Source of the DNA: an uncultured Planctomycetales bacterium
GTDB lineage: Bacteria; Omnitrophota; Gorgyraeia; Gygaellales; Profunditerraquicolaceae
Assembly (NCBI GenBank): GCA_964545575.1
Contig: CAZJFL010000006.1
Coordinates: 25,721-89,720 of the forward strand
DNA: 64,000 bases
Direction: 5' to 3'
The notes under the pieces are model-generated. The model searched no databases, was not told the DNA's origin, and saw only the letters and a program-made list of their open reading frames with translations. Positions within the stretch are counted from its first letter, which is position 1. Every line of letters starts with the position of its first letter. Made by a program: the position numbers and the translations under genes. Positions 3,900 through 30,880 of this stretch are shown in pieces.

Positions 3900-5213
3900 A
3901 TGGAACAGCAAAGGACGATTGCCAGAGACGCCAGTTTAAAAGGCGTAGGCCTGCATACGGCTAAGGAAGTGAACATTACCTTTAAGCCGGCAGGCCTGGA
4001 CTGCGGTATCAATTTTATCCGCACGGATACAACACCCAGAGTCACGATTAAAGCCTCGGTGGATACGCTGTTATCTCAGTCGCGCTCACCCCGGCGCACC
4101 TCCATAGGCAAGGACGGTATAGAGGTGCATACCATCGAGCATCTGATGGCGGCCCTGTCGGGTTTGGGGATAGACAACCTGGATATTGAAATTAACAACG
4201 AAGAAGTCCCCGGTCTTGACGGCAGCAGCCTGAATTTTTTAAAAGCGCTTACTGATGCGGGCATTAAAGAGCAGGCTAAGGCGCGTCATTATTATCTGGT
4301 CAGAGACCCTATTTTTGTAGAAGAGCCCGGCGGCTCGATTGTAGTTTTGCCGGCGCAGGATTTCAGGATATCCTACACTTTAAGTTACGATCACCCGCTT
4401 TTAAAAGCGGAGTTTATGGAGTTGGGCATTAATGCGGATACCTTTAAGGATGAATTAGCTGCTTCGCGCACCTTCTGCCTGGAAGAAGAAGCGACGGAAT
4501 TGCAGCAGCAGGGTATTGGACAGGGCGCAAATTACGAGAATACTCTTGTCTTAGGCAAGACCGGGGTGCTGAAGAACAAACTGCGCTATGAGGATGAGTT
4601 CATCCGGCATAAGATACTGGATTTAATGGGCGATTTATACGTGCTGGGCCAACCGATAAAGGCTCACGTTATTGCTTTAAGGAGCGGGCACTCTTTGAAC
4701 CTGAAATTAATCAAGAAAATAGACCGGGAAAAGCAAAAGCAGTCTGCCGGAGGCATCGGCGCTTCCTACTCTCCGCCTGAAGGGCAGGAGCTGGGTGCGC
4801 CTGAGATTATGAAAATATTGCCGCACCGCGAGCCTTTCCTGTTTGTAGATAGAATAACTTCTTTGGAAAAAGGCAGGCGCGCCGTGGGGATAAAGAACGT
4901 TACCATAAACGATTATTTTTTTAAAGGGCATTTTCCCACCAGACCGGTGATGCCGGGGGTGCTGATTATCGAAGCTATGGCGCAGGTGGGCGGGGTGATG
5001 ATGCTTTCTCCGGAGGAGAATCAGGGTAAGATCGCTTATTTTATCGCTGCCGATAATATAAAGTTTAGAAAAACCGTGGTGCCGGGCGACCAGCTGGTGC
5101 TGGAAGTAGATGCCGGAAAAATTAAACCTAAGACCGGCCTGGTGCATGCTAAGGCAAAAGTAGAGGGAAAAGTGGTCGCCGAAGCAGACCTTAAGTTTGT
5201 TTTAACGGATTAA
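3900..5213 (+). CDS. lpxC-fabZ: Bifunctional UDP-3-O-acyl-GlcNAc deacetylase LpxC / 3-hydroxyacyl-ACP dehydratase FabZ fusion
   Basis: The N-terminal 280 aa have LpxC hallmarks (GVGLHTAKEV…HTIEHL). The C-terminal 140 aa form a FabZ hotdog domain (…GHFPTRPVMPGVLIIEAMAQ…). A Gly/Ser/Pro linker joins them. Confidence 0.9.
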   Translation: MEQQRTIARDASLKGVGLHTAKEVNITFKPAGLDCGINFIRTDTTPRVTIKASVDTLLSQSRSPRRTSIGKDGIEVHTIEHLMAALSGLGIDNLDIEINNEEVPGLDGSSLNFLKALTDAGIKEQAKARHYYLVRDPIFVEEPGGSIVVLPAQDFRISYTLSYDHPLLKAEFMELGINADTFKDELAASRTFCLEEEATELQQQGIGQGANYENTLVLGKTGVLKNKLRYEDEFIRHKILDLMGDLYVLGQPIKAHVIALRSGHSLNLKLIKKIDREKQKQSAGGIGASYSPPEGQELGAPEIMKILPHREPFLFVDRITSLEKGRRAVGIKNVTINDYFFKGHFPTRPVMPGVLIIEAMAQVGGVMMLSPEENQGKIAYFIAADNIKFRKTVVPGDQLVLEVDAGKIKPKTGLVHAKAKVEGKVVAEADLKFVLTD

Positions 5214-5214
5214 A

Positions 5215-6006
5215 ATGAAAACAGAAATAGATACCAGTGCCGTGGTCTCCCAGAAAGCTAAATTATACGATCATGTCACAATCGGCGAGTATTCTATTAT
5301 TAAAGATAATGTCTCTATCGGTGCGGGTACAAAAATCGGCGCGCACTGCGTAATAGAAGGCAATACCACAATCGGGAAATCCTGCGAAATCTTTACCGGG
5401 GCAGTGCTGGGAAGCCGGCCGCAGGACTTAAAATATAAAGGAGAAAATAGCTTATTGGAGATAGGCGATCATAATATCATCCGTGAATACTGCACCTTTA
5501 ACCCCGGCACAGAAGACGGGAGAAAGACCAAGGTCGGAAATAATAACCTGTTTATGGCTTATTCGCACATTGCCCACGATTGCGTAGTAGGAAATAATTG
5601 TATCATCGCTAACAACGGAACGCTGGCCGGCCATGTTACCATTGAAGATAAGGCAGTGGTCGGGGGTTTGGTTGCTATCCATCAGTTCGTCAGGATCGGG
5701 CAACTTTCCATTATCGGAGGCTGTTCCAAGGTAGTGCAGGATATTCCGCCGTATTCCACCTGCGACGGGCATCCGGCGCGGGTATACGGATTAAACCTGG
5801 TGGGTTTAAGGCGCCATAATATCCCCAAAGAATCGTTAAAGCAATTGAACCGCGCCTTTTCCATTCTTTTTAATCAAGGGTTAACCATTAAACATGCTCT
5901 TGCCAAATTAGAAGAAGAGATCCAGCCCGCCTCAGCTGAGGTTCGGTATCTGGTAAATTTTATCAAAAAGTCCGAAAGAGGTATTGCGCGTTCCTGCCGT
6001 AAATAG
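5215..6006 (+). CDS. lpxA: Acyl-ACP--UDP-GlcNAc O-acyltransferase LpxA
   Basis: Hexapeptide-repeat acyltransferase, 263 aa, with an LpxA C-terminal helical domain. Directly follows lpxC-fabZ. Confidence 0.9.
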   Translation: MKTEIDTSAVVSQKAKLYDHVTIGEYSIIKDNVSIGAGTKIGAHCVIEGNTTIGKSCEIFTGAVLGSRPQDLKYKGENSLLEIGDHNIIREYCTFNPGTEDGRKTKVGNNNLFMAYSHIAHDCVVGNNCIIANNGTLAGHVTIEDKAVVGGLVAIHQFVRIGQLSIIGGCSKVVQDIPPYSTCDGHPARVYGLNLVGLRRHNIPKESLKQLNRAFSILFNQGLTIKHALAKLEEEIQPASAEVRYLVNFIKKSERGIARSCRK

Positions 6007-6054
6007 GGACTGTCCCCGCAGTCGCCTTTTACTTCAGGCTGAGGGGACTGTCCC
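6006..6054. repeat. Paired palindromes GGGACTGTCCCC … GGGGACTGTCCC (family 3), copy 1
   Basis: The 11-mer GGGACTGTCCC is self-complementary. Two copies flank a 25-nt spacer immediately after the lpxA stop. The same pair recurs at 60561-60641. Confidence 0.55.
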
Positions 6055-6071
6055 TAAGGCTTTAAAAGAAA

Positions 6072-6875
6072 ATGGAAAAAATTGGTTTAATCGCCGGTAA
6101 CCGTAAGTTTCCCCTTCTTTTTTGCGCCGCCGCCAAGAAAAGAGCCTATCATATCGTGGCCGTAGCCATAAAAGGGGACACCTCGCCCGCTTTAAAAAAA
6201 CTCGTGGATAAAATATACTGGCTTAGGCTCGGCGAGTTCACCCGCCTTTTTGAGATCTTTAAGAAAGAAGGGGTCACTAAAGTAGTCATGGCCGGCCAGA
6301 TCAGCCCGCACCGCCTTTTTAGCAAAGAAGTAAGTAAAAATAAAGCAATACAGGATATCTTAAGCAGCATCAGAGATAAAAAAGCCGACACCATATTCGG
6401 CGCGATAGCGCAAAAGTTAAAAGACTCCGGGATTGAATTAGCGGACTCTACTATTTTTATGGAAGAGTTTCTTCCTGCCAAAGGCACACTCGCCAGGAGA
6501 GAGCCGGATTTTGCCGAATGGGAAGATATCCACTTTGGCTTAAGGCTAGCCAAAGAAATTGCTTATTTGGATATCGGCCAGAGCGTGGCGGTAAAACATA
6601 AAGCCGTAGTGGCGGTGGAAGCTCTGGAAGGCACGGATAATCTCATCCGCCGCGCCGGTAAAATTGCCGGAAAAGGCGCAGTCATGGTTAAGGTCAGTAA
6701 GCCAAAGCAGGACATGCGATTTGATATCCCGGTCATAGGTTTGACCACCGTAAAGAACCTGATCAAAGCAGGTGTCTGCTGCCTGGCCATTGAAGCCGAT
6801 AAAACTCTTTTTATTGACAAGGAAGCCAGCATAAGACTAGCCGATAAAAAAGGTCTCGCCATCGTCGCAGTATAA
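6072..6875 (+). CDS. lpxI: UDP-2,3-diacylglucosamine hydrolase LpxI (DUF1009 family)
   Basis: 267 aa. N-terminus MEKIGLIAGNRKFPLLF is typical of LpxI. Positioned after lpxA as in lpxA-lpxI-lpxB clusters. Confidence 0.7.
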   Translation: MEKIGLIAGNRKFPLLFCAAAKKRAYHIVAVAIKGDTSPALKKLVDKIYWLRLGEFTRLFEIFKKEGVTKVVMAGQISPHRLFSKEVSKNKAIQDILSSIRDKKADTIFGAIAQKLKDSGIELADSTIFMEEFLPAKGTLARREPDFAEWEDIHFGLRLAKEIAYLDIGQSVAVKHKAVVAVEALEGTDNLIRRAGKIAGKGAVMVKVSKPKQDMRFDIPVIGLTTVKNLIKAGVCCLAIEADKTLFIDKEASIRLADKKGLAIVAV

Positions 6876-6888
6876 ATTACCCCTTCAG

Positions 6889-6917
6889 TTGAAAAGCTAT
6901 CTTTTTCATGCTATACT
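6889..6917 (+). promoter_or_regulatory. Sigma70-like promoter (TTGAAA-17-TATACT)
   Basis: The hexamers and a 17-nt spacer are read directly. The predicted TSS coincides with the start of a 12-bp helix arm at 6925. Confidence 0.4.
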
Positions 6918-6924
6918 TTATATT

Positions 6925-7102
6925 GCCGATAAAGGCAAACCCGCCGAAAGGCGGGGGCGCAAAGCCGCAGGCCTAAGGCCGTGAGTTAACGTTGGACGGC
7001 TACGGTAGCTGGGCTGCCGAAGGAGGTCGAGAGGAGTGCTTTCGACTGGCCTTTATCGGCGGTCGTTTTACAAGGAATCCCAACATTTTGTTGGGATTTT
7101 TT
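6925..7102 (+). ncRNA. Candidate structured small RNA (about 178 nt) of unknown family
   Basis: A 12-bp perfect long-range helix (GCCGATAAAGGC 6925-6936 with GCCTTTATCGGC 7049-7060). It encloses a GNRA hairpin CCCGCC-GAAA-GGCGGG and other hairpins. It ends in an intrinsic-terminator-like hairpin plus T-run. Local GC looks well above that of flanking genes. Confidence 0.3.
7076..7102 (+). terminator. Rho-independent terminator-like hairpin (AATCCCAAC-ATTTT-GTTGGGATT + TTTTTTG)
   Basis: Perfect 9-bp stem with a 5-nt loop, followed by a T-run. Confidence 0.45.
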
Positions 7103-7127
7103 GTTAGCAACCCCGTCGATTTCCCAC

Positions 7128-7365
7128 CCATATATTTTGTGGGGCCTGTCTTGGCTATTTTCTCGCGGGGACGCTTGTTGCGTCCCAGCGTGCCGCAATT
7201 GCGTCCTTCGCTTACGCTTCAGGACGCAACCCCTCTTAGTAAGCGCATGGGCTGCGCTCGTCTCCAGCCCCTCGCTCTCACCGAGTATCTATTTAGCGGG
7301 TGAACCGTGCCCGCTCGGGGCTTCCGACGCCCCGCTCTAAAATAGCCAAGCCACCCACAAAATAT
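7128..7365. repeat. Roughly 238-bp segment bounded by about 33-nt imperfect terminal inverted repeats (MITE-like, or domain 2 of a large RNA)
   Basis: Left end ATATTTTGTGGGGCC…TTGGCTATTTTCTCGC matches the reverse complement of right end GCTCTAAAATAGCCAAGCCACCCACAAAATAT. This gives nested helices 7130-7143/7352-7363 and 7153-7161/7341-7349. The interior holds two 7-bp hairpins sharing GCGTCC arms and a three-way junction at 7289-7345. Confidence 0.4.
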
Positions 7366-7416
7366 CGAATTCGTTCAAAAACTCTCCAGATTCATTTTTT
7401 GATGGCTTAAGTTGCA

Positions 7417-7491
7417 TTTAGCGGGTGGCACGGGGATGCTTCGCGAGCGCTATCATAGCGCAAGAAGCGCCCCGTGACAGGACCCGCTAAA
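7417..7491 (+). repeat. Family-2 palindromic element TTTAGCGGGT…ACCCGCTAAA (about 75-nt extended hairpin)
   Basis: Four stacked perfect stem segments (10+7+5+6 bp). The conserved termini recur at 28610-28681 in the same sense relative to the downstream gene. A related unit lies at 7289-7345. Confidence 0.55.
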
Positions 7492-7572
7492 CTCTTACTT
7501 CTATTCGTAATAATACCTTATTATTGGCATTTTCTATTTCCATTTTAGATGAGCGGTGTTATAATACAATCT

Positions 7573-8790
7573 ATGTTAAAGTTTCCAGCTAACTTTCTCT
7601 GGGGCGCGGCGACTTCTGCCTATCAGGTAGAAGGTAGTAATACTAATAGCGACTGGTGGGAGTGGGAGAAGCGCACTGGCAGGGAATCTTCGGGTGATGC
7701 CTGCCGCCATTACGCACTCTACCGGCAGGATTTCGATTTAGCTAAAGCCCTTAACCATAATGCCCACCGTCTATCCCTGGAATGGAGCCGCATCGAGCCC
7801 GAAGAGGGCAAGTTTTCAGAGCAAGAGCTCAAACATTACAAAGATGTGATCTTAGCGCTTAAGGAGCGCGGCCTCCAACCTATTGTTACGCTGCATCATT
7901 TCAGCAACCCCATCTGGCTTACGCGTTTAGGCGGATGGGAGAATAAAAAAGCCGCGCAATATTTTTTGCGTTTTGTCGAGCGCGCGGTGAATGAATTAGC
8001 CGACCAGGTGCATTACTGGATTCCTATAAACGAACCGATGGTCTATGTGTATCATAGCTACATCGCCGGAGTCTGGCCGCCGCAGGAAAAATCATTCTCC
8101 AAAGCCAGGTTAGTGGAGAATAATTTAGCCGCCGCCCATCTTAAAGCATACAGGTTAATCCACGCCATTTATAAAAATAGAAAATTAAACCCTCCTTTGG
8201 TAGGTATCGCGCAAAACATGCAGGCGTTTATAGCTTGTCAGGCGACACTCAGGAATAAGCTGGCAGTGCGTTTAAGGGACAGGCTCTTTAACTTTGCTTT
8301 TATCGCCAGACTCACACAGAGGCGTGCCCTTGATTTTATCGGGGTTAATTATTATTCGCGCGGGCTGGTAGAAGTAAACCATTGGGGTTTTAAGCATCTC
8401 TTGCTGGATAATTGTAAGAATAATCACCTTCCGGTGCGTAAGAACTCTTTAGGGTGGGATATCTATCCGGCCGGCCTGTATGCGCTGCTTTTGAAACTAA
8501 AAAAATATAAACTCCCTATATTGATTTCAGAAAACGGCATCTGCACTGAAGACGATAATTTGCGCTGGGATTACATATCCGAACATTTAAAAAATATACA
8601 TTCGGCAATAGAAAAAGGGGTGCCGGTATTAGGTTACATTTATTGGTCGTTGATCGATAATTATGAATGGGATAAAGCCTTTACCCCGCGCTTCGGTATT
8701 ATCGCAGTGGATTATTCTACCTATAAACGCACGGTCAGGGAAAGCGGGAAAAAACTAGCCCTGGTCTGTCAGCATAACGCGCTGGATTAA
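7573..8790 (+). CDS. Glycoside hydrolase family 1 beta-glucosidase
   Basis: MLKFPANFLWGAATSAYQVEGS N-terminus, …NEP… acid/base motif and I(S/T)ENG nucleophile motif. The ORF track starts at 7549. The ATG at 7573 fits the family N-terminus and follows a TGtTATAAT element at 7557-7565. Confidence 0.85.
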   Translation: MLKFPANFLWGAATSAYQVEGSNTNSDWWEWEKRTGRESSGDACRHYALYRQDFDLAKALNHNAHRLSLEWSRIEPEEGKFSEQELKHYKDVILALKERGLQPIVTLHHFSNPIWLTRLGGWENKKAAQYFLRFVERAVNELADQVHYWIPINEPMVYVYHSYIAGVWPPQEKSFSKARLVENNLAAAHLKAYRLIHAIYKNRKLNPPLVGIAQNMQAFIACQATLRNKLAVRLRDRLFNFAFIARLTQRRALDFIGVNYYSRGLVEVNHWGFKHLLLDNCKNNHLPVRKNSLGWDIYPAGLYALLLKLKKYKLPILISENGICTEDDNLRWDYISEHLKNIHSAIEKGVPVLGYIYWSLIDNYEWDKAFTPRFGIIAVDYSTYKRTVRESGKKLALVCQHNALD

Positions 8791-10806
8791 ATGGAGCTGA
8801 TTAACAAAGACTTAATTTTAAAAGAAATGCCGTTGTTCGCCGGCCTCACTGCCGAAGAGCGCCGGATCATCAAAGGCAAATGCTCCTTAAGAGACTATAA
8901 AAAAGGCGAAGTCATTTACAAGGAAGGCTCTCCTGCGGATGCGTTTTATTGCGTGGTCCTCGGCCGAGTGGTCATTTATGCCCGGGACAGAGACGGACAG
9001 GAAAAAATCCTGGAATACCTGCACCGCGGAAAATACTTCGGCATTATTTCTCTCCTTACCGGAGAGACGCATTCCGTGACTGCCGAGACTATAAACGACT
9101 GCCTGCTTCTGGTGATTGAGAAAAAGGACTTCGATTATGTCTTAAACAAGGCCCCGCGCTTAGCCATTGACTTAAGCCAGACCCTTTCCCGCAGGCTCAA
9201 ACGTAAAGATATCCACCAGAAGACAATCTTTGAAAGTACGGTGATTTCAGTATTCAGCTCTTATTCCCAAGCGGGTAAAACCGTTTACGCGATGAATCTC
9301 GCCCTGAGCCTGCGCAAAGAGACGCAGAAGAGCCTGGTGATACTGGGTATCCTGCCGCAGGATAAAATCCATAGCCTGCCTAAAAGGCTGGAGAGCGCAG
9401 GAGATTACCGGGTCTTTGATTTATCTTCTTCGGCCGCCAGCACCTCAAGGATTAAAGATTTTATTTTAAAAAACAGGTTTGCGGTAGATTTAATCTGCTT
9501 AAGCTATAACCCCGAAGATTATTCCTGCGTCAGGAAGCTGGTTGAGATTTTAAGCCTCCTGGTGAATGATTACCATTACCTGATTTTAGACCTGCCTTCC
9601 TCGATGGACAGGCCGGTTTTTAGCATCTTGAACCAATCCGATTTGATCTATATGCTGACCGGCCCGGAGCCGGTAGATTTGAAGCGTACCCAGCACCTGA
9701 TAGCAAAACTTAAGAAAGAGTTTCATTTTCAGGAAAGCAAGATCAGGGTGGTGATCAACGAATATAAACTTTCCAAGCTTAGCCACGAGGAGCTGATCGG
9801 GCTATTGAAGCAAAATATTTCGGCTACTTTGCCGAGAATAGAATTTGGCGCCGGGGACAGGTTGATTTTGGATAATCCTGATTGCGAATACTCCAAAGCA
9901 GTCAGGCGCATCGCGCGCCAGATCGGCGATTGCCAGGTAGGCCTGGTGCTCGGCGTGGGGGTAGCTTACGGTTTCTGCCATATCGGGGTATTAAAGGTAA
10001 TCGAGGAAGAAAAAATCCCCGTTGACGTCATTTGCGGTTCCAGTATCGGAGCCCTGATTGCCAGCCTCTGGGCAACCGGAAAATCCGCCCCGGAGATCCT
10101 TGAAATCACTAAAGAGTTTAAGGAGGCAAAATCCATGTGGGGGATGGTGGACTTGACTTTCCCGCTCCTGGGCTTTATCAAAGGCAACAAGCTCCATAAT
10201 TTCCTGAAAAAATATTTGGGCAATAAGACCTTCTATGAGGTTAAGCTTCCCTTAAAGATAATTGCCAGCGACGTAAAAAGAAAAGAGCCGCGCGTCCTGG
10301 ACAAAGGCTTAATCGCGGATGCGATCATGGCCAGCTGTGCCATGCCCGGGGTGTTTGCGCCTTTTAAGTTCAGGGAAGAGATACTTTTTGACGGCGGCAT
10401 CATCAACCCTTTGCCGACTGAACCTTTATTTAAGATGGGGGTTAAAAAGATTATCGCCGTCAATGTCACGCCTTCCCGTCAGGATATCATGCGCCAGTAT
10501 GATTTGCTGAAAGAAAAAATTACGGTTACGATCCCCGAGAGCATCAAGAAGAAAAAGTGGTTTAGCTTACGGCAGTACCTGAAGGATATATTTAAGAATA
10601 ATATCCTGGATATCATTTTTAGTAGCGTCGAAATATTGCAGTCGGAAGTAGCCCAGAAAGAAGCGCAACTGGCAGATGTAGTCCTGCATCCGGACACCGC
10701 CGGTTTATTTTGGCTGGATTTACACAAGGCAGAGGAGTTTGCCAAAAGGGGAGAAACAGAGGCGCGCCGGAACCTGGATAAAATCAAGCAGTTGGTTAAT
10801 GATTAA
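8791..10806 (+). CDS. Three-domain protein: cNMP-binding (CAP_ED) + degenerate ParA/MinD-like domain + patatin-like phospholipase (NTE-like)
   Basis: The N-terminus has the cNMP-binding beta-roll (…FGIISLLTGETHSVTAETI…). The middle has a deviant P-loop (SSYSQAGKT). The C-terminal half has the patatin motifs GxGxxG (GVGVAYGF) and GxSxG (GSSIG), with a DGG. The start overlaps the GH1 stop (TAAATG). Confidence 0.8.
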   Translation: MELINKDLILKEMPLFAGLTAEERRIIKGKCSLRDYKKGEVIYKEGSPADAFYCVVLGRVVIYARDRDGQEKILEYLHRGKYFGIISLLTGETHSVTAETINDCLLLVIEKKDFDYVLNKAPRLAIDLSQTLSRRLKRKDIHQKTIFESTVISVFSSYSQAGKTVYAMNLALSLRKETQKSLVILGILPQDKIHSLPKRLESAGDYRVFDLSSSAASTSRIKDFILKNRFAVDLICLSYNPEDYSCVRKLVEILSLLVNDYHYLILDLPSSMDRPVFSILNQSDLIYMLTGPEPVDLKRTQHLIAKLKKEFHFQESKIRVVINEYKLSKLSHEELIGLLKQNISATLPRIEFGAGDRLILDNPDCEYSKAVRRIARQIGDCQVGLVLGVGVAYGFCHIGVLKVIEEEKIPVDVICGSSIGALIASLWATGKSAPEILEITKEFKEAKSMWGMVDLTFPLLGFIKGNKLHNFLKKYLGNKTFYEVKLPLKIIASDVKRKEPRVLDKGLIADAIMASCAMPGVFAPFKFREEILFDGGIINPLPTEPLFKMGVKKIIAVNVTPSRQDIMRQYDLLKEKITVTIPESIKKKKWFSLRQYLKDIFKNNILDIIFSSVEILQSEVAQKEAQLADVVLHPDTAGLFWLDLHKAEEFAKRGETEARRNLDKIKQLVND

Positions 10807-11018
10807 GTGAGGGCATAAGTTATGCCTGCCTGACCGGTGAGGCAGGGAGGTAGCTATTAGTTGGCTAACCGTCATAACTTATGTGCCCGAACTTACACCG
10901 CACCTTTTAAATATTCAAAAATACTTTAATAAAAAGGTGCGGTGTTAATTCGCGCAAATAACTTACGTCGCTCTTTCAGAGCTTCCGTAAGTTATGCGCT
11001 CATTAAAAGGAGAGGAAG
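10807..11018 (+). repeat. Family-1 structured intergenic element, copy A (three stem-loops)
   Basis: Starts GTGAGGGCATAAGTTATGCC right after the stop codon. SL1 is GGGCATAAGTTATG…CATAACTTATGTGCCC. SL2 is CACCGCACCTTTTA…TAAAAGGTGCGGTG. SL3 is GCGCAAATAACTTACG…CGTAAGTTATGCGC. It ends GCTCATTAAAAGGAG + ATG. Homologous modules lie at 13575, 29472, 30881 and 38930. Confidence 0.55.
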
Positions 11019-13501: not shown

Positions 13502-13573
13502 GCCGAGGTAGCTCAGTGGTAGAGCGCGGCCCTGAAAAGGCCGGCGTGGGGGGTCCGATTCCCTCCCTCGGCA
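13502..13573 (+). tRNA. tRNA-Phe (anticodon GAA)
   Basis: Hand-folded cloverleaf. Acceptor GCCGAGG/CCTCGGC, D-arm GCTC-AGTGGTA-GAGC, anticodon stem CGGCC/GGCCG with loop CTGAAAA, T-arm GGGGG-TCCGATT-CCCTC. No encoded CCA. Confidence 0.85.
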
Positions 13574-16497: not shown

Positions 16498-17040
16498 GTG
16501 CAGGAAAGGCGGGTTATCCCGGATAGCGAATTATTCAAATTCTTTGAAGAGGCTAAGAAGAGAAGCGAGCGGGTAAATTGGTATGGGTATTTCGTAACTT
16601 TGTATATGACTTGCTCAAGAGTAAGCGAAATAACCTCCCTCAAGAAATCGCAGATTAAAAATGGTATTATACAATTTCATAAAACTAAAGCTAAACCAAA
16701 AGCCGTCTTTATACACCCTCAATTAAGGCCTATTTTAGAAGAGGCCATTAAACGCTCAAAGGTTGAGCTGGTATTTCCTAATATAAATGGGGAAGAGATA
16801 AACCGCAGGAAGATAAGGGATAGAATGATAGAGCTATGTCGCCTGGTCGGGATACCTAAGGCCACGCCACACGATTTAAGACATACTTTTGCCAGCAGAA
16901 TTGATATAGAAAGCTATGTAAAACAAAAGATAGGTGGTTGGGTTAATAAAAGAGTGCTGGAGGATACCTATAACCATCCGGCAGAGGATATTGTAAGACA
17001 GGCATATTTCGGGGTTGATTTAATGCCTAAGTCAGAATAA
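16498..17040 (+). pseudogene. Truncated tyrosine recombinase/integrase (catalytic domain only)
   Basis: Box I Arg (CSRVSE), HDLRHTFAS (H-x-x-R) and …GW…EDTYNH (catalytic Tyr) are present. The reading frame opens only 12 nt upstream of the GTG (TAA at 16483), so the roughly 100-aa N-terminal core-binding domain is absent. Confidence 0.65.
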
Positions 17041-24986: not shown

Positions 24987-25743
24987 ACTTAAAAAAATAC
25001 GTTTGGAAAAAGGCTTAAGCCTGCAAGAGGTGCATAAGAAGACCAAGGTCCATTTGAACATCTTAAAGGCCATAGAAGAAGACGGCCTGGTCAGCCTCAA
25101 CCCCGTCTACACGAAAGGGTTTTTAAAGATCTACTGTAAGTTTTTAGGCACAGACCCGCGTGATTTTATTTCGGATTATAAAGAACCGCGCAGCCACGCT
25201 AAGATCGCCGAGGATTTATCCGAAAGGAAAAACCCCCAGGCGCCTTTATTGAAGACCGCCTCTTTTAGGCTCAAAACTTTTCGGCCGCAGATCAGCTTAA
25301 AGTCCGTAATTATATTTATTTTGGCCGTAATTTTTATCGTGTTTTTATTTAAATTACCGAAAATAATTTTCTCCCGGCGCGCTCCCGCGCTTCCTAAGAA
25401 TAATCCGCCTATCGTAGTCCTGCCTAAAAAAATAGAGAAGACCGCGCAGACAGTTTCTGTGCAGAAGGTCCCCGCGGCAAGCGAGGTGAGGCTGGGGATA
25501 TGGGCGAAAGAGAATTGCCTGGTAAAGGTCAAGCTCGACGGGCATCTGATGATGGACCGCGTTTTTAAGAAAGGCACGCGCGAAAGTTGGACCGCCAAGG
25601 AAAAAATAGAGCTTTCTTTAGGCAATGCCACAGCGGTAGAGCTGGAAGTAAACGGCAGGATTATACCGCCTGTAGGCAGAAAAGGCCAGCCGGCCAGAAA
25701 CATAGTCATCACCAAGAGTGGTTTAATCAATATTCCCCGATGA
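24967..25743 (+). CDS. rodZ: RodZ-like cytoskeleton protein (HTH_XRE + TM + DUF4115)
   Basis: N-terminal HTH, a single TM segment and a C-terminal beta-rich domain. Confidence 0.6.
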   Translation: MESPGARLKKIRLEKGLSLQEVHKKTKVHLNILKAIEEDGLVSLNPVYTKGFLKIYCKFLGTDPRDFISDYKEPRSHAKIAEDLSERKNPQAPLLKTASFRLKTFRPQISLKSVIIFILAVIFIVFLFKLPKIIFSRRAPALPKNNPPIVVLPKKIEKTAQTVSVQKVPAASEVRLGIWAKENCLVKVKLDGHLMMDRVFKKGTRESWTAKEKIELSLGNATAVELEVNGRIIPPVGRKGQPARNIVITKSGLINIPR

Positions 25744-29215: not shown

Positions 29216-29262
29216 AGAAAAAGATTAATCTTCAGGGCAAGGTGAAATTCCCGACCGGCGGT

Positions 29263-29348
29263 AGCGCAGAAACGCACACCAAACCATCAATTTGGTTTGG
29301 GTGTTAGCGCAGAAGCGCACACCAATTTATCCTATAAAATTGGGTGTT
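29263..29348 (+). repeat. Tandem duplicated roughly 43-nt insertion in the riboswitch P3 loop
   Basis: Unit 1 is AGCGCAGAAACGCACACCAAAccatcaaTTTGGTTTGGGTGTT. Unit 2 is AGCGCAGAAGCGCACACCAATTTatcctatAAAATTGGGTGTT. The P3 hairpin is usually short. The CACCMAA…TTGGGTGTTA motif resembles the family-1 SL2 module. Confidence 0.6.
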
Positions 29349-29437
29349 AAAGTCCGCGAGCCAAAAAGGCATGAACTGGTGCGAGTCCAGTACCGATGGT
29401 ATAGTCCAGAGGGGAGAAGATTGAAATTACCTTTATA

Positions 29438-29471: not shown

Positions 29472-29671
29472 GAGCAGAAGACTTACGGAGTTCCGAAAGA
29501 GCGACGTAAGTCTTAGTGATAGCGTTATACGAAATTATTCACGTCTGCGAATTAACGCCGCACCTTTTATTTTTTTAAATGCCTTAAAAAGGTGCGGCGT
29601 AAGTTCGCACAAATAAGTTATGTCGATTAGCTCTAGTTAAATAACGGTCTCCATAACTTATGTGCTCACTT
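29472..29671 (+). repeat. Family-1 structured intergenic element, copy B
   Basis: Modules: GAGCAGAAGACTTACGGAG…CGACGTAAGTC; GCGAATTAACGCCGCACCTTTT…AAAAAGGTGCGGCG; ACAAATAAGTTATGTCG…CATAACTTATGTGCTCAC. It overlaps the first ATG of ribBA. Confidence 0.5.
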
Positions 29672-30880
29672 ATGTTCAATTCTATCCAGGAAATAATTCA
29701 GGATTTAAAGAGCGGTTCCCAGGTCATTGTGGTGGATGACGAGAGCCGGGAGAACGAAGGCGACCTGATCATGGCGGCTTCTTTTGTCCGGCCGCAGGAT
29801 ATAAACTTTATGGCCAAGGAGGGGCGGGGGCTCATCTGCGTGCCCATGGAAGAGGAAAGGTTAAGCTATTTACGCCTTGAGCCGATGCTTAAAGACGATG
29901 TTTCTCTGAGCCGGAAAGATCCTTTTTCTACCGCCTGGATGATTTCTGTGGACGCCGCGCGGGGGATAACTACCGGTATCTCTGCGGGCGACCGCAGCCG
30001 CACCATAGAGGCCTTGGCTAATCTTAAGACGACGCCCGAAGAATTGATACGTCCCGGTCATATCTTTCCTTTAAAGGCGCGTAAAGGCGGAGTATTGGTC
30101 AGGGCCGGGCACACTGAAGCAGCGATAGACCTGATGCGCCTCTGTGGGCTATATCCGGTAGCGGTAATCTGTGAGATTATGAACGAAGACGGCACCATGG
30201 CCAGGCTGCCGGAGTTGCTTGAGTTTTCCCGTAAACACAAGCTTAAGATCTGCTCTATTGCCGATTTAATCGAATACCGCAGGCGTTCTGAAAAACTAAT
30301 AGAGCGGGTTTCTGAAACTATACTTCCGACTGAATATGGCACCTACCGGCTGATCTTATACCGGGATTTAATCAGCAGGCAGATGCATATTGCGCTGACG
30401 ATGGGGAAGCTTAACAGCGGCGCTACCCTGGTGCGCGTGCATTCCGAATGCCTGACCGGCGATACGCTGGGGTCTTTACGCTGCGATTGCGGGAAGCAGC
30501 TGGAAAAAGCGATGCAGATTATCGGCCGGGAAAAAAAGGGCGTGCTCCTTTATATGCAGCAGGAGGGTCGCGGCATCGGTTTGGCGGATAAAATCCGCGC
30601 TTATAGCCTGCAGGATAAAGGGATGGATACGGTGGAGGCCAATGAAGCCTTAGGTCATAAGCCGGACCTGCGCGATTACGGTATAGGCGCTCAGATTTTA
30701 GCGGACCTCGGGCTAGAAAATATCCGGCTCTTAACCAATAATCCGCGTAAAATCGTGGGCCTGGAAGGCTATGGTTTAGCTGTCACTGAACGCCTGCCCC
30801 TGGAGGTCAAACCTAATCCTGCAAATTACCGGTATCTAAAGACCAAAAAGGAAAAATTAGGGCACGATTTAAAAATATAA
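29660..30880 (+). CDS. ribBA: Bifunctional 3,4-dihydroxy-2-butanone-4-phosphate synthase / GTP cyclohydrolase II
   Basis: N-terminal RENEGDL…, C-terminal HSECLTGD…CDCG. The second ATG at 29672 (MFNSIQ…) is an alternative start. Confidence 0.92.
   Translation: MCSLMFNSIQEIIQDLKSGSQVIVVDDESRENEGDLIMAASFVRPQDINFMAKEGRGLICVPMEEERLSYLRLEPMLKDDVSLSRKDPFSTAWMISVDAARGITTGISAGDRSRTIEALANLKTTPEELIRPGHIFPLKARKGGVLVRAGHTEAAIDLMRLCGLYPVAVICEIMNEDGTMARLPELLEFSRKHKLKICSIADLIEYRRRSEKLIERVSETILPTEYGTYRLILYRDLISRQMHIALTMGKLNSGATLVRVHSECLTGDTLGSLRCDCGKQLEKAMQIIGREKKGVLLYMQQEGRGIGLADKIRAYSLQDKGMDTVEANEALGHKPDLRDYGIGAQILADLGLENIRLLTNNPRKIVGLEGYGLAVTERLPLEVKPNPANYRYLKTKKEKLGHDLKI

Follow-up and report, generated by a model that had tools for sequence, protein, structure and literature searches.

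A conserved cNMP-binding-like, MinD-like and patatin protein of Omnitrophota and its association with a GH1 glycosidase and a c-di-GMP-I-type riboswitch

Introduction

The NTE/PNPLA6/Swiss-cheese proteins place one or more cyclic nucleotide monophosphate (cNMP)-binding domains N-terminal to a patatin-type Ser-Asp hydrolase, and a comparable logic, in which a nucleotide messenger gates a patatin lipase, is found in the CBASS effectors CapV and CapE and in the cNMP-binding effectors of Pycsar. An open reading frame (ORF) with related features lies at positions 8791..10806 (+) of the 64,000-nucleotide stretch of DNA analyzed here (the window), which spans positions 25,721 to 89,720 of contig CAZJFL010000006.1 (assembly GCA_964545575.1) and is deposited under an uncultured Planctomycetales bacterium that GTDB assigns to the Omnitrophota. 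The Omnitrophota are uncultured, mostly ultra-small bacteria whose lifestyle is debated. The product of 671 amino acids (aa) joins a cNMP-binding domain, a MinD/ParA-fold domain and a patatin domain, and its gene follows directly on that of a glycoside hydrolase of family 1 (GH1), upstream of which sits a riboswitch aptamer of the cyclic di-GMP (c-di-GMP)-I type. The interpretation that we favor, and for and against which the evidence seems to us evenly balanced, is that the protein is a cytoplasmic, allosterically ligand-gated lipid acyl hydrolase that acts in (glyco)lipid catabolism, is co-expressed with the GH1 enzyme and is tied to the riboswitch.

The resemblance to NTE extends to the ligand of the cNMP-binding domain, which is unsettled in both cases, and to a member of the family (P0242) that carries four such domains. 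Unlike NTE, the window protein is prokaryotic, lacks an N-terminal transmembrane segment, has a MinD/ParA-fold domain of approximately 230 aa between sensor and hydrolase, and ends in a patatin domain of the bacterial RssA/PlpD type; the likeness is one of architecture. RssA, YlbK and PlpD provide the best sequence and fold matches to residues 381-670 and share the GxSxG, DGG and GSGAAxG-type oxyanion motifs, whereas the window protein scores below the RssA cut-off, has Tyr in place of the oxyanion Arg and bears two extra N-terminal domains; PlpD, in addition, is an autotransporter, while the window protein is predicted to be cytoplasmic. With MinD/ParA ATPases such as 3ea0 it has in common the MinD fold over its full length and the Walker-B motif hhhhDxP, and with 3ea0 itself also 'E' and 'D-I-S' motifs, but the domain is fused inside an enzyme and lacks both the signature Lys and the second DxD Asp. 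Profile and fold similarity to the CBASS and Pycsar effectors is weak; CapV and CapE have no cNMP-binding domain and are activated by filament formation, and the window gene occupies a housekeeping or catabolic neighborhood rather than a cyclase-bearing defense island. Judged by its sequence, the protein appears to work like an NTE-type or second-messenger-gated patatin while falling outside RssA, the functional cAMP receptors and the catalytic MinD proteins.

A Widespread Three-Domain Family

The architecture was established with Pfam and NCBIfam models, a profile search against the PDB, and an AlphaFold2 model searched by Foldseek. A cNMP-binding-like domain with its C-helix occupies residues 10-140 (8818..9210, +), the MinD/ParA-fold domain residues 150-379 (9238..9927, +), and the patatin domain with a helical C-terminal extension residues 382-671 (9934..10803, +). 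The model, built from 73 sequences, has a mean pLDDT of 83.7 and a pTM of 0.70 and is weak solely at the linker 139-146 and at 585-603. Foldseek against the PDB returned each domain separately, namely PlpD for the patatin part, 3ea0 for the middle part and the sensor domains of CRP and PKA-R for the N-terminus. No signal peptide or transmembrane segment was seen in the sequence of the window lipase, which is why it is taken as cytoplasmic. An earlier note on this DNA, made from the letters alone, had proposed the same ORF and domain order, and the two strings that it quoted were located in the translation, FGIISLLTGETHSVTA from residue 83 and SSYSQAGKT from residue 156.

The same note had presented the protein as unusual, a view that the family searches overturned in revealing a large, vertically conserved family of mostly Omnitrophota members. 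A first protein search gave 1041 matches. The best 120 of them share 68-82% identity with the window protein, range from 645 to 699 aa, come from Omnitrophota and bear the names 'patatin-like' or 'NTE family'. In an exhaustive search of representatives more than 100 clusters (50% identity) aligned from residue 1 to approximately 670, down to 27% identity. Full-length matches in a search of one genome per species were almost all from Omnitrophota, the remainder being a few metagenome-assembled genomes labeled Planctomycetes, two Verrucomicrobiia, and distant Desulfobacteraceae and Chloroflexota. The suggested search for the same three-domain order in other genomes was thus rewarded: architecture and motifs recur in hundreds of proteins, and the features of the window protein are far beyond chance. 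The architecture is a family trait, not a local curiosity. A cluster look-up with the exact window protein returned no name or accession, and literature searches on the patatin plus cNMP/MinD/ParA architecture and on Omnitrophota found no paper describing the family. The genome scan used a closer alignment (A2), since a 46-sequence alignment (A1) had no conserved stretch long enough. Counts given below refer to 106 full-length family representatives or to 119 close relatives, the window clade.

The MinD-Like Middle Domain

The middle domain was identified by a 20-sequence profile of residues 143-381, which matched 3ea0 ('ATPase, ParA family') in the PDB with E 2e-18, followed by Pyrococcus MinD (1ion/1g3q, approximately 3e-12, full length over residues 8-239) and then by Soj, MinD, VpsO and others. 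Residues 151-379 also align (E 1.7e-7) with the NCBIfam model minD_arch, taking up positions 2-231 of 251, and the AlphaFold model of the domain superposes on 3ea0 with a target-normalized TM-score (TMt) of 0.77. With the single sequence, Pfam gave sub-threshold matches over 151-339 to CbiA (22.1 against a cut-off of 25.4) and AAA_31 (17 against 27), and none of the Pfam and NCBIfam models scanned reached its named-family cut-off for this domain. Taken together, profile and model argue that it is a genuine MinD/ParA fold. The suggestion in the earlier note of a ParA-type middle domain with a deviant Walker A has therefore held up, the matches to 3ea0 and MinD speaking against a region unrelated to P-loop NTPases.

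The Walker A loop SSYSQAGKT (residues 156-164; 9256..9282, +) has Tyr158 at the position of the signature Lys of KGGxGK[ST], as do 112 of the 119 close relatives. In the profile alignment the family reads D-I-S at the switch-I DxD motif, where Pyrococcus horikoshii MinD has D-G-D, so that the second Asp is gone; the first Asp, present in 116 of 119 close relatives, is replaced by Gly186 in the window protein. MinD needs the signature Lys and the second DxD Asp to hydrolyze ATP; on this alignment both are lost, and in the window protein the first Asp as well. Lys163 and Thr164 of the Walker A GK[ST] and the Walker-B Asp267 are retained; none of the 119 close relatives departs from G162-K163-T164 or D267, and the whole loop SSYSQAGKT is essentially invariant in the clade. 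Among the 106 representatives GK[ST] is intact in 24 and D267 present in 51, and Omnitrophota paralogs of 497-517 aa (L030-L033) consist of the MinD-like and patatin domains alone, with no cNMP-binding domain and an unrecognizable P-loop. The label 'inactive-looking' in the earlier note agrees with the loss of the signature Lys and DxD, but is too simple given a GKT and Walker-B Asp that are invariant in the clade and unconserved family-wide.

These residues bear on the possibility that the MinD-like domain is a working nucleotide switch, with ATP driving dimerization or membrane association of the lipase and the cNMP-binding domain acting as a modulator. We consider this unlikely. The full-length MinD fold, the invariance of G162-K163-T164 and D267 and the conservation of the SSYSQAGKT loop in the clade would suit such a switch, while the replaced signature Lys, the second DxD Asp absent throughout the family and Gly186 in the window protein would not; and because GK[ST] is rare family-wide and the paralogs that lack a cNMP-binding domain have no P-loop, ATP use cannot be the conserved mechanism of the family. 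We read the conserved role of the domain as structural, in dimerization or coupling, with nucleotide binding without MinD-type hydrolysis possible in the window clade. The closest solved relative, 3ea0, is likewise without the Walker Lys. It presumably resembles the atypical ATPase domain of TadZ/CpaE; in TadZ, as in the window protein, the ATPase-type domain is preceded by a sensor-type domain.

The cNMP-Binding-Like Sensor Domain

Pfam assigns residues 34-119 to cNMP_binding (PF00027; E 1.9e-23, 82.7 bits against a cut-off of 27.5), and Foldseek matches the N-terminal domain to the sensor domains of CRP, PKA-R and DNR, in keeping with a β-barrel and C-helix fold. In the canonical phosphate-binding cassette, G-E ... 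R-[ST]-A, the Glu contacts the ribose 2'-OH and the Arg the cyclic phosphate. The cassette of the window protein is FGIISLLTGETHSVTA (residues 83-98; 9037..9084, +), and its ungapped alignment to PKA-R/PKG (yfgiislltgethsvta versus yfgelallknkpraati) places Ile85 where the canonical Glu would be and His94 where the canonical Arg would be. The canonical pair of a cAMP or cGMP receptor is accordingly absent from the window protein, as had been proposed from the letters alone.

The replacement is systematic. Of the 106 representatives, 85 carry His and 12 carry Arg at position 94, and at position 85 Glu occurs in 67 and Ile in 28. Among the 119 close relatives position 85 is Ile, Val or Met, and His94, Ser95, Val96, Ile86, Ser87 and Leu89 are each found in every one. 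The scaffold of the cassette (G84, S87, L88-89, T90, S95) is conserved in the family. Such conservation indicates that the cassette is under strong purifying selection, with His for the phosphate-clamping Arg and, in the window clade alone, Ile for the ribose-contacting Glu, and it looks like a site retuned under selection rather than one in decay. A canonical E...R[ST] is limited to approximately 12 distant representatives plus Chloroflexota and Desulfobacterota loci; because distant members, from Chloroflexota (L038, L039, L079) and Desulfobacteraceae (L036, L037), keep FGE...R[ST]A, the ancestor of the family was probably cNMP-regulated, and the Omnitrophota lineage would have altered the phosphate clamp. 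Other family members carry further sensor modules, one a receiver plus a cNMP-binding domain and another (P0242) its four cNMP-binding domains, which fits a signal-regulated enzyme.

Replacement of this Arg has precedents. Arg substitution in CRP and PKA-R abolishes or severely weakens cNMP binding, and in the PKA-R of Trypanosoma brucei the cassette Arg is replaced and nucleosides are bound instead; 6h4g, among the Foldseek matches, is a cAMP-restoring mutant of that protein. Within the CRP/FNR group, CooA, CprK, NtcA and the c-di-GMP-binding Clp likewise have the cassette Arg replaced and respond to other ligands. These proteins share with the window family a canonical fold in which the phosphate-clamping Arg is replaced, and differ from it in the His/Ser/Val cassette, which is not known to us from any characterized protein. 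We infer that a small ligand is still recognized by the N-terminal domain, though cAMP and cGMP would not be bound in canonical fashion.

Two other accounts of the domain have to be weighed. One holds that it is ligand-free and, together with the MinD-like domain, just a structural or dimerization module, with regulation purely transcriptional. Loss of both canonical contacts and the existence of the paralogs without a cNMP-binding domain (L030-L033) are consistent with it, as is the circumstance that, to our knowledge, cAMP binding by the cNMP-binding domains of eukaryotic NTE has never been shown. The cassette is nevertheless among the best-conserved stretches of the protein, with six of its residues invariant in all 119 close relatives as listed above, which would be unexpected of a mere spacer and makes this account doubtful.

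The other account, of a bacterial NTE-like phospholipase that cAMP or cGMP activates canonically through a His cassette equivalent to the Arg cassette, strikes us as quite unlikely. It can point to the strong Pfam match with conserved cassette geometry, to the distant members with FGE...R[ST]A and a probably cNMP-regulated ancestor, and to the ability of His to hydrogen-bond phosphate. Against these stand the replacement of both contacts (Glu by Ile, Val or Met and Arg by His) in all 119 close relatives, the loss or severe weakening of cNMP binding that follows Arg substitution elsewhere and the binding of nucleosides by T. brucei PKA-R. The earlier note had asked whether such substitutions are normal in a characterized cAMP-responsive subfamily; the Arg-to-His change is indeed normal in this family, but the family is uncharacterized and not known as cAMP-responsive.

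The Patatin Domain

Residues 385-546 match Pfam Patatin (PF01734) with E 9e-32 (111.3 bits against a cut-off of 27.7). Of the catalytic dyad, Ser418 in GSSIG is kept in 105 of the 106 representatives and Asp534, with Gly535, in FDGG in all 106. The oxyanion motif is GVGVAYG here and GSGAAxG in the family, with glycines G388, G390 and G394 kept; the Arg found at this motif in RssA-type enzymes (GSGAARG) is replaced by Tyr in the whole of the clade (119/119), and family-wide the position is L, F, R or Y. The patatin part of the model matches PlpD (5fya; E 4e-18, TMt 0.83) and also patatin (4pkb/1oxw) and CapE. With the invariant Ser-Asp dyad, the domain is predicted to be catalytically competent.

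The best named model is RssA (NF007623, an equivalog and the source of the label 'NTE family protein'), which covers residues 381-670 with E 1e-32 and 113.5 bits against a cut-off of 272, placing the protein outside that equivalog. The description 'NTE-like' in the earlier note is hence apt for the cNMP-binding/patatin combination alone, the RssA score of 113 bits being far short of what the name would call for.

The GH1 Partner and the Gene Neighborhood

The GH1 β-glycosidase gene lies at 7573..8790 (+) and encodes 405 aa from its likely start. Its product matches Pfam Glyco_hydro_1 with E 5e-83 (279.5 bits against a cut-off of 22.6), has the motifs IPINEP (NEP acid/base) and ISENG (ENG nucleophile) in translation, and scores 298 bits against the TIGR03356 BGL equivalog, below its cut-off of 478. 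The mechanical ORF call begins at 7549, eight codons early; ATG 7573 (MLKFP...) is the start used by relatives and lies 7 nt past a conserved TGnTATAAT. The GH1 stop codon TAA (8788-8790) abuts the lipase ATG at 8791, and so does not overlap it as had been claimed. The tight coupling of the two genes that this claim was meant to convey was confirmed, with stop-to-start distances of -14 to +5 nt in every related locus. Loci of the window clade were defined by a lipase at least 58% identical, and in 16 of the 17 that have upstream sequence GH1 lies directly 5' of the lipase; it also adjoins the lipase in L084 and in the divergent L023 (lipase 34% identical).

The best solved homolog of the GH1 protein, by a wide margin, is 1vff (312 bits, E 4e-92, end-to-end alignment), which we take to be the P. 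horikoshii enzyme BGPh (Akiba et al., 2004). Long-alkyl glucosides are the preferred substrates of BGPh, a membrane-associated β-glycosidase, and relatives of this enzyme act on steryl glucosides (PMC4687101). Both belong to the short type of approximately 410-420 aa with NEP and ENG motifs; BGPh differs in being archaeal and hyperthermophilic. On this basis the window enzyme resembles a lipid-aglycone β-glucosidase and may share that preference.

The surroundings of the lipase gene suggest a part in lipid breakdown. Sister clades, at 35-39% identity, have it directly 3' of a VLCAD-type acyl-CoA dehydrogenase gene in eight loci; a 3-hydroxyacyl-CoA dehydrogenase gene is nearby in eight loci, and one for thiolase in five. 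Downstream neighbors in the window clade include a CDP-alcohol phosphatidyltransferase, a phospholipase D-like protein, an acyl-acyl carrier protein (acyl-ACP) thioesterase and a PilZ protein. Synteny is conserved across many genomes, in the order lpx genes or a peptidoglycan-binding gene, GH1, lipase, SNF transporter and DUF3568. Glycosylated lipids are likely substrates in the window clade, judging by the company of the gene. In the window the cluster lpxD, lpxC/fabZ, lpxA and lpxI lies directly 5' of the riboswitch and includes a fused LpxC-FabZ/FabA-like gene (437 aa) at 3900-5213, a fusion also present in L081 and L082.

These contexts also dispose of a role in anti-phage defense or abortive infection, in which the protein, in the manner of the Pycsar or CBASS patatins, would destroy membranes once infection gives rise to a cyclic nucleotide; we rejected this view as hardly credible on its weak PADLOC scores and housekeeping gene contexts. 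In its favor are weak domain-level matches, with E 2.6e-12 to phospholipase effectors in PADLOC, 9e-6 to PycTIR (in its cNMP-binding part) and 4e-7 to NCBIfam CBASS_lipase, together with CapE among the fold matches. They are outweighed by scores far below family level, by the absence of a cyclase or CD-NTase among the neighbors of the examined loci, and by the core-genome synteny and β-oxidation clusters described above.

Riboswitch and Promoters Upstream of GH1

Rfam RF03167 (gathering threshold 59 bits) matches the aptamer (6925..7022, +) along the entire model with a score of 73.4 bits, and in the ligand pocket the aptamer carries the parent-class consensus strings AAAGGCAAACC and GCGCAAAGCC. 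RF03167, the top model for the window aptamer, is the GGC variant; the aptamer reads CGCAAAG as in the parent consensus (GACGCAAAgCc), not CGCGAAG as in the variant, and the parent model RF01051 gives the highest scores (41-78 bits) to the syntenic counterparts of the aptamer in L008, L081, L083 and L086-L089. The idea that a GGC variant would imply a different ligand was consequently rejected, the diagnostic position being A in the window and the counterparts fitting the parent model best. An aptamer lies directly 5' of GH1 in 9 of the 17 loci, in two different upstream contexts: the window, L008, L081, L083 and L086-L089 were recognized by Rfam and L007 by four conserved motifs. Eight of them, the window and seven relatives, pass the gathering threshold on models of clan CL00126.

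Each copy of the aptamer comes with its own promoter, a CCTTTATCGGC element and a hairpin followed by a T run. In the window the promoter-like site (6889..6917, +) consists of TTGAAA, a 17-nt spacer and TGcTATACT, scores 10/12 with a TG extension, and ends 7 nt 5' of the aptamer; TGnTATACT lies 7 nt 5' of GCCGAT, where the aptamer begins, in all nine riboswitch loci. The CCTTTATCGGC element (7050..7060, +) is complementary to the aptamer 5' strand GCCGATAAAGG (6925-6935) in a 12-nt perfect inverted repeat; eight of the nine loci have it unchanged, and in the remaining one the substitution is compatible with a U·G pair. The hairpin AATCCCAACA/TGTTGGGATT with its T run (7070..7104, +) resembles an intrinsic terminator. 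It is near-invariant in related loci, including some without an aptamer, in which the 3' arm of the hairpin and the -35 element of the GH1 promoter overlap. Seven loci without an aptamer (L001-L005, L085, L090) mostly have the hairpin, as AATCCC(A/G)(A/G)CA/TGTTGGGATT, 5' of the GH1 or lipase promoter; its near-constancy there despite 30-40% protein divergence hints at sequence-specific recognition rather than at a plain terminator. Leader-peptide attenuation was considered and dropped, as the small ORF across the hairpin is unconserved in L083 and L008.

A second promoter, for GH1, lies at 7537..7565 (+) and was recognized by promoter scoring and conservation. It comprises TTTCCA, a 17-nt spacer and TGtTATAAT, with the -10 element 7 nt 5' of ATG 7573. 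Since TGnTATAAT stands 6-10 nt 5' of the GH1 ATG (MxxFP..FLWGAATS) in nearly all loci, aptamer or not, the GH1 message is apparently leaderless and transcribed from a promoter of its own. No strong Shine-Dalgarno sequence precedes the lipase start codon, and lipase translation would then depend on coupling to GH1.

In general the window aptamer conforms to the c-di-GMP-I (GEMM-I) class in its full-model match, parent pocket strings, own promoter and intrinsic terminator. It departs from that class in its top model, in the separate conserved promoter after the terminator, and in its genes, GH1 and a patatin lipase being atypical of a c-di-GMP regulon. The riboswitch could act through read-through transcripts, by promoter occlusion, or as a free short RNA. 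Outside the window clade no aptamer was found 5' of the lipase in L009-L018, although L009 has a copy 5.5 kb downstream. In L089, a riboswitch-bearing locus, genes for a PilZ-domain protein (the type of a c-di-GMP receptor) and an acyl-ACP thioesterase lie just 3' of the lipase (5801-6595).

A window-specific insertion (7105..7536, +), where relatives have approximately 25 nt, contains two strongly structured inverted-repeat elements (7132-7365 and 7417-7491) with RNA fold z-scores of -6.75 and -6.4, respectively, and a common 12-mer, ATTTAGCGGGTG. The insertion, of approximately 430 nt, has no Rfam match and no second copy in the window or the loci, so that its nature as a repeated mobile element was not confirmed; it may be a remnant like a miniature inverted-repeat transposable element or a structured RNA of a new type.

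Proposed Mechanism and Its Significance

The ligand-gated lipase that we favor would operate as follows. Ligand binding at the N-terminal domain would be passed via the long C-helix to the MinD-like domain, which, as a hydrolysis-dead dimerization or scaffold module that possibly binds nucleotide in the window clade, would control the patatin active site. The lipase and a GH1 enzyme of the lipophilic-aglycone type would be made from one leaderless transcript with translational coupling, and the pair may dismantle glycolipids or other glycosylated lipids, the fatty acids entering catabolism. Transcription of the pair would be tied to c-di-GMP in about half of the close relatives by the riboswitch with its own promoter and terminator.

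Several observations weigh against this scheme. From the domains, motifs, conservation, synteny and RNA elements described above we infer every gating step, along with the ligand, the substrate, the oligomeric state and the sign of regulation. His can contact phosphate, and the cassette may thus retain weak or pH-dependent cNMP binding; the MinD-like domain may bind or even use ATP, because GKT and the Walker-B Asp are invariant in the window clade. Most sister clades (L009-L021) are without an adjacent GH1, which limits the glycolipid idea at best to the window clade. The conserved GH1 promoter lies 3' of the riboswitch terminator, and in the window the insertion separates riboswitch and GH1 promoter by 430 nt. 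Finally, no antiterminator was found, either by minimum free energy and constrained folding, in which the terminator was kept in both states, or by eye.

A bolder version of the scheme would have the His cassette as a receptor for a ligand other than cAMP or cGMP, be it c-di-GMP (the messenger of the adjacent riboswitch), a nucleoside or a lipid product, which would activate the lipase through a hydrolysis-dead MinD-like dimer; working stoichiometrically with a membrane-active GH1, the lipase would strip sugars and acyl chains from glycolipids for β-oxidation. In ultra-small, host-dependent Omnitrophota such lipids could belong to the membranes of host or prey cells, and a single messenger would control lipid scavenging through both RNA and protein. 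As a whole we think this very doubtful.

The window gene encodes a conserved, phylum-typical enzyme of the Omnitrophota. It offers natural examples of a cNMP-binding domain in which the cyclic-phosphate clamp is systematically changed from Arg to His while still under selection, of a MinD/ParA ATPase fold apparently re-used as a non-catalytic linker within an enzyme, and of a lipase-glycosidase pair linked to c-di-GMP signaling via a riboswitch. With the ligand and substrate identified, cNMP-binding domains would be known to accept a wider set of ligands, lipid catabolism would join the outputs of the c-di-GMP regulon, and the way in which Omnitrophota obtain fatty acids would become clear. 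Should the ligand be ordinary cAMP, what remains would be a familiar regulatory theme in a new architecture.

Other Features of the Window

The gap 3' of the lipase gene (10807-11018) is unusually long at 212 nt and contains a 14-bp hairpin, ACACCGCACCTTTT...AAAAGGTGCGGTGT. Three copies of the palindrome CATAA[CG]TTATG also lie within it; this palindrome occurs eight times in the window against 0.9 expected, mostly between genes, the other copies being at 2319, 17708, 29612, 29652 and 34413. A tRNA-Phe gene (13502-13573) is followed by a stretch of low GC content (0.39-0.40) that extends to 17400 and contains ORFs without Pfam matches and a truncated phage-integrase gene (16498-17040), and which is probably a small integrated island. 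In L081 the tRNA gene is directly followed by CBS and methyltransferase genes. An FMN riboswitch (29224-29425, 92 bits) lies 5' of the ORF at 29660-30880.

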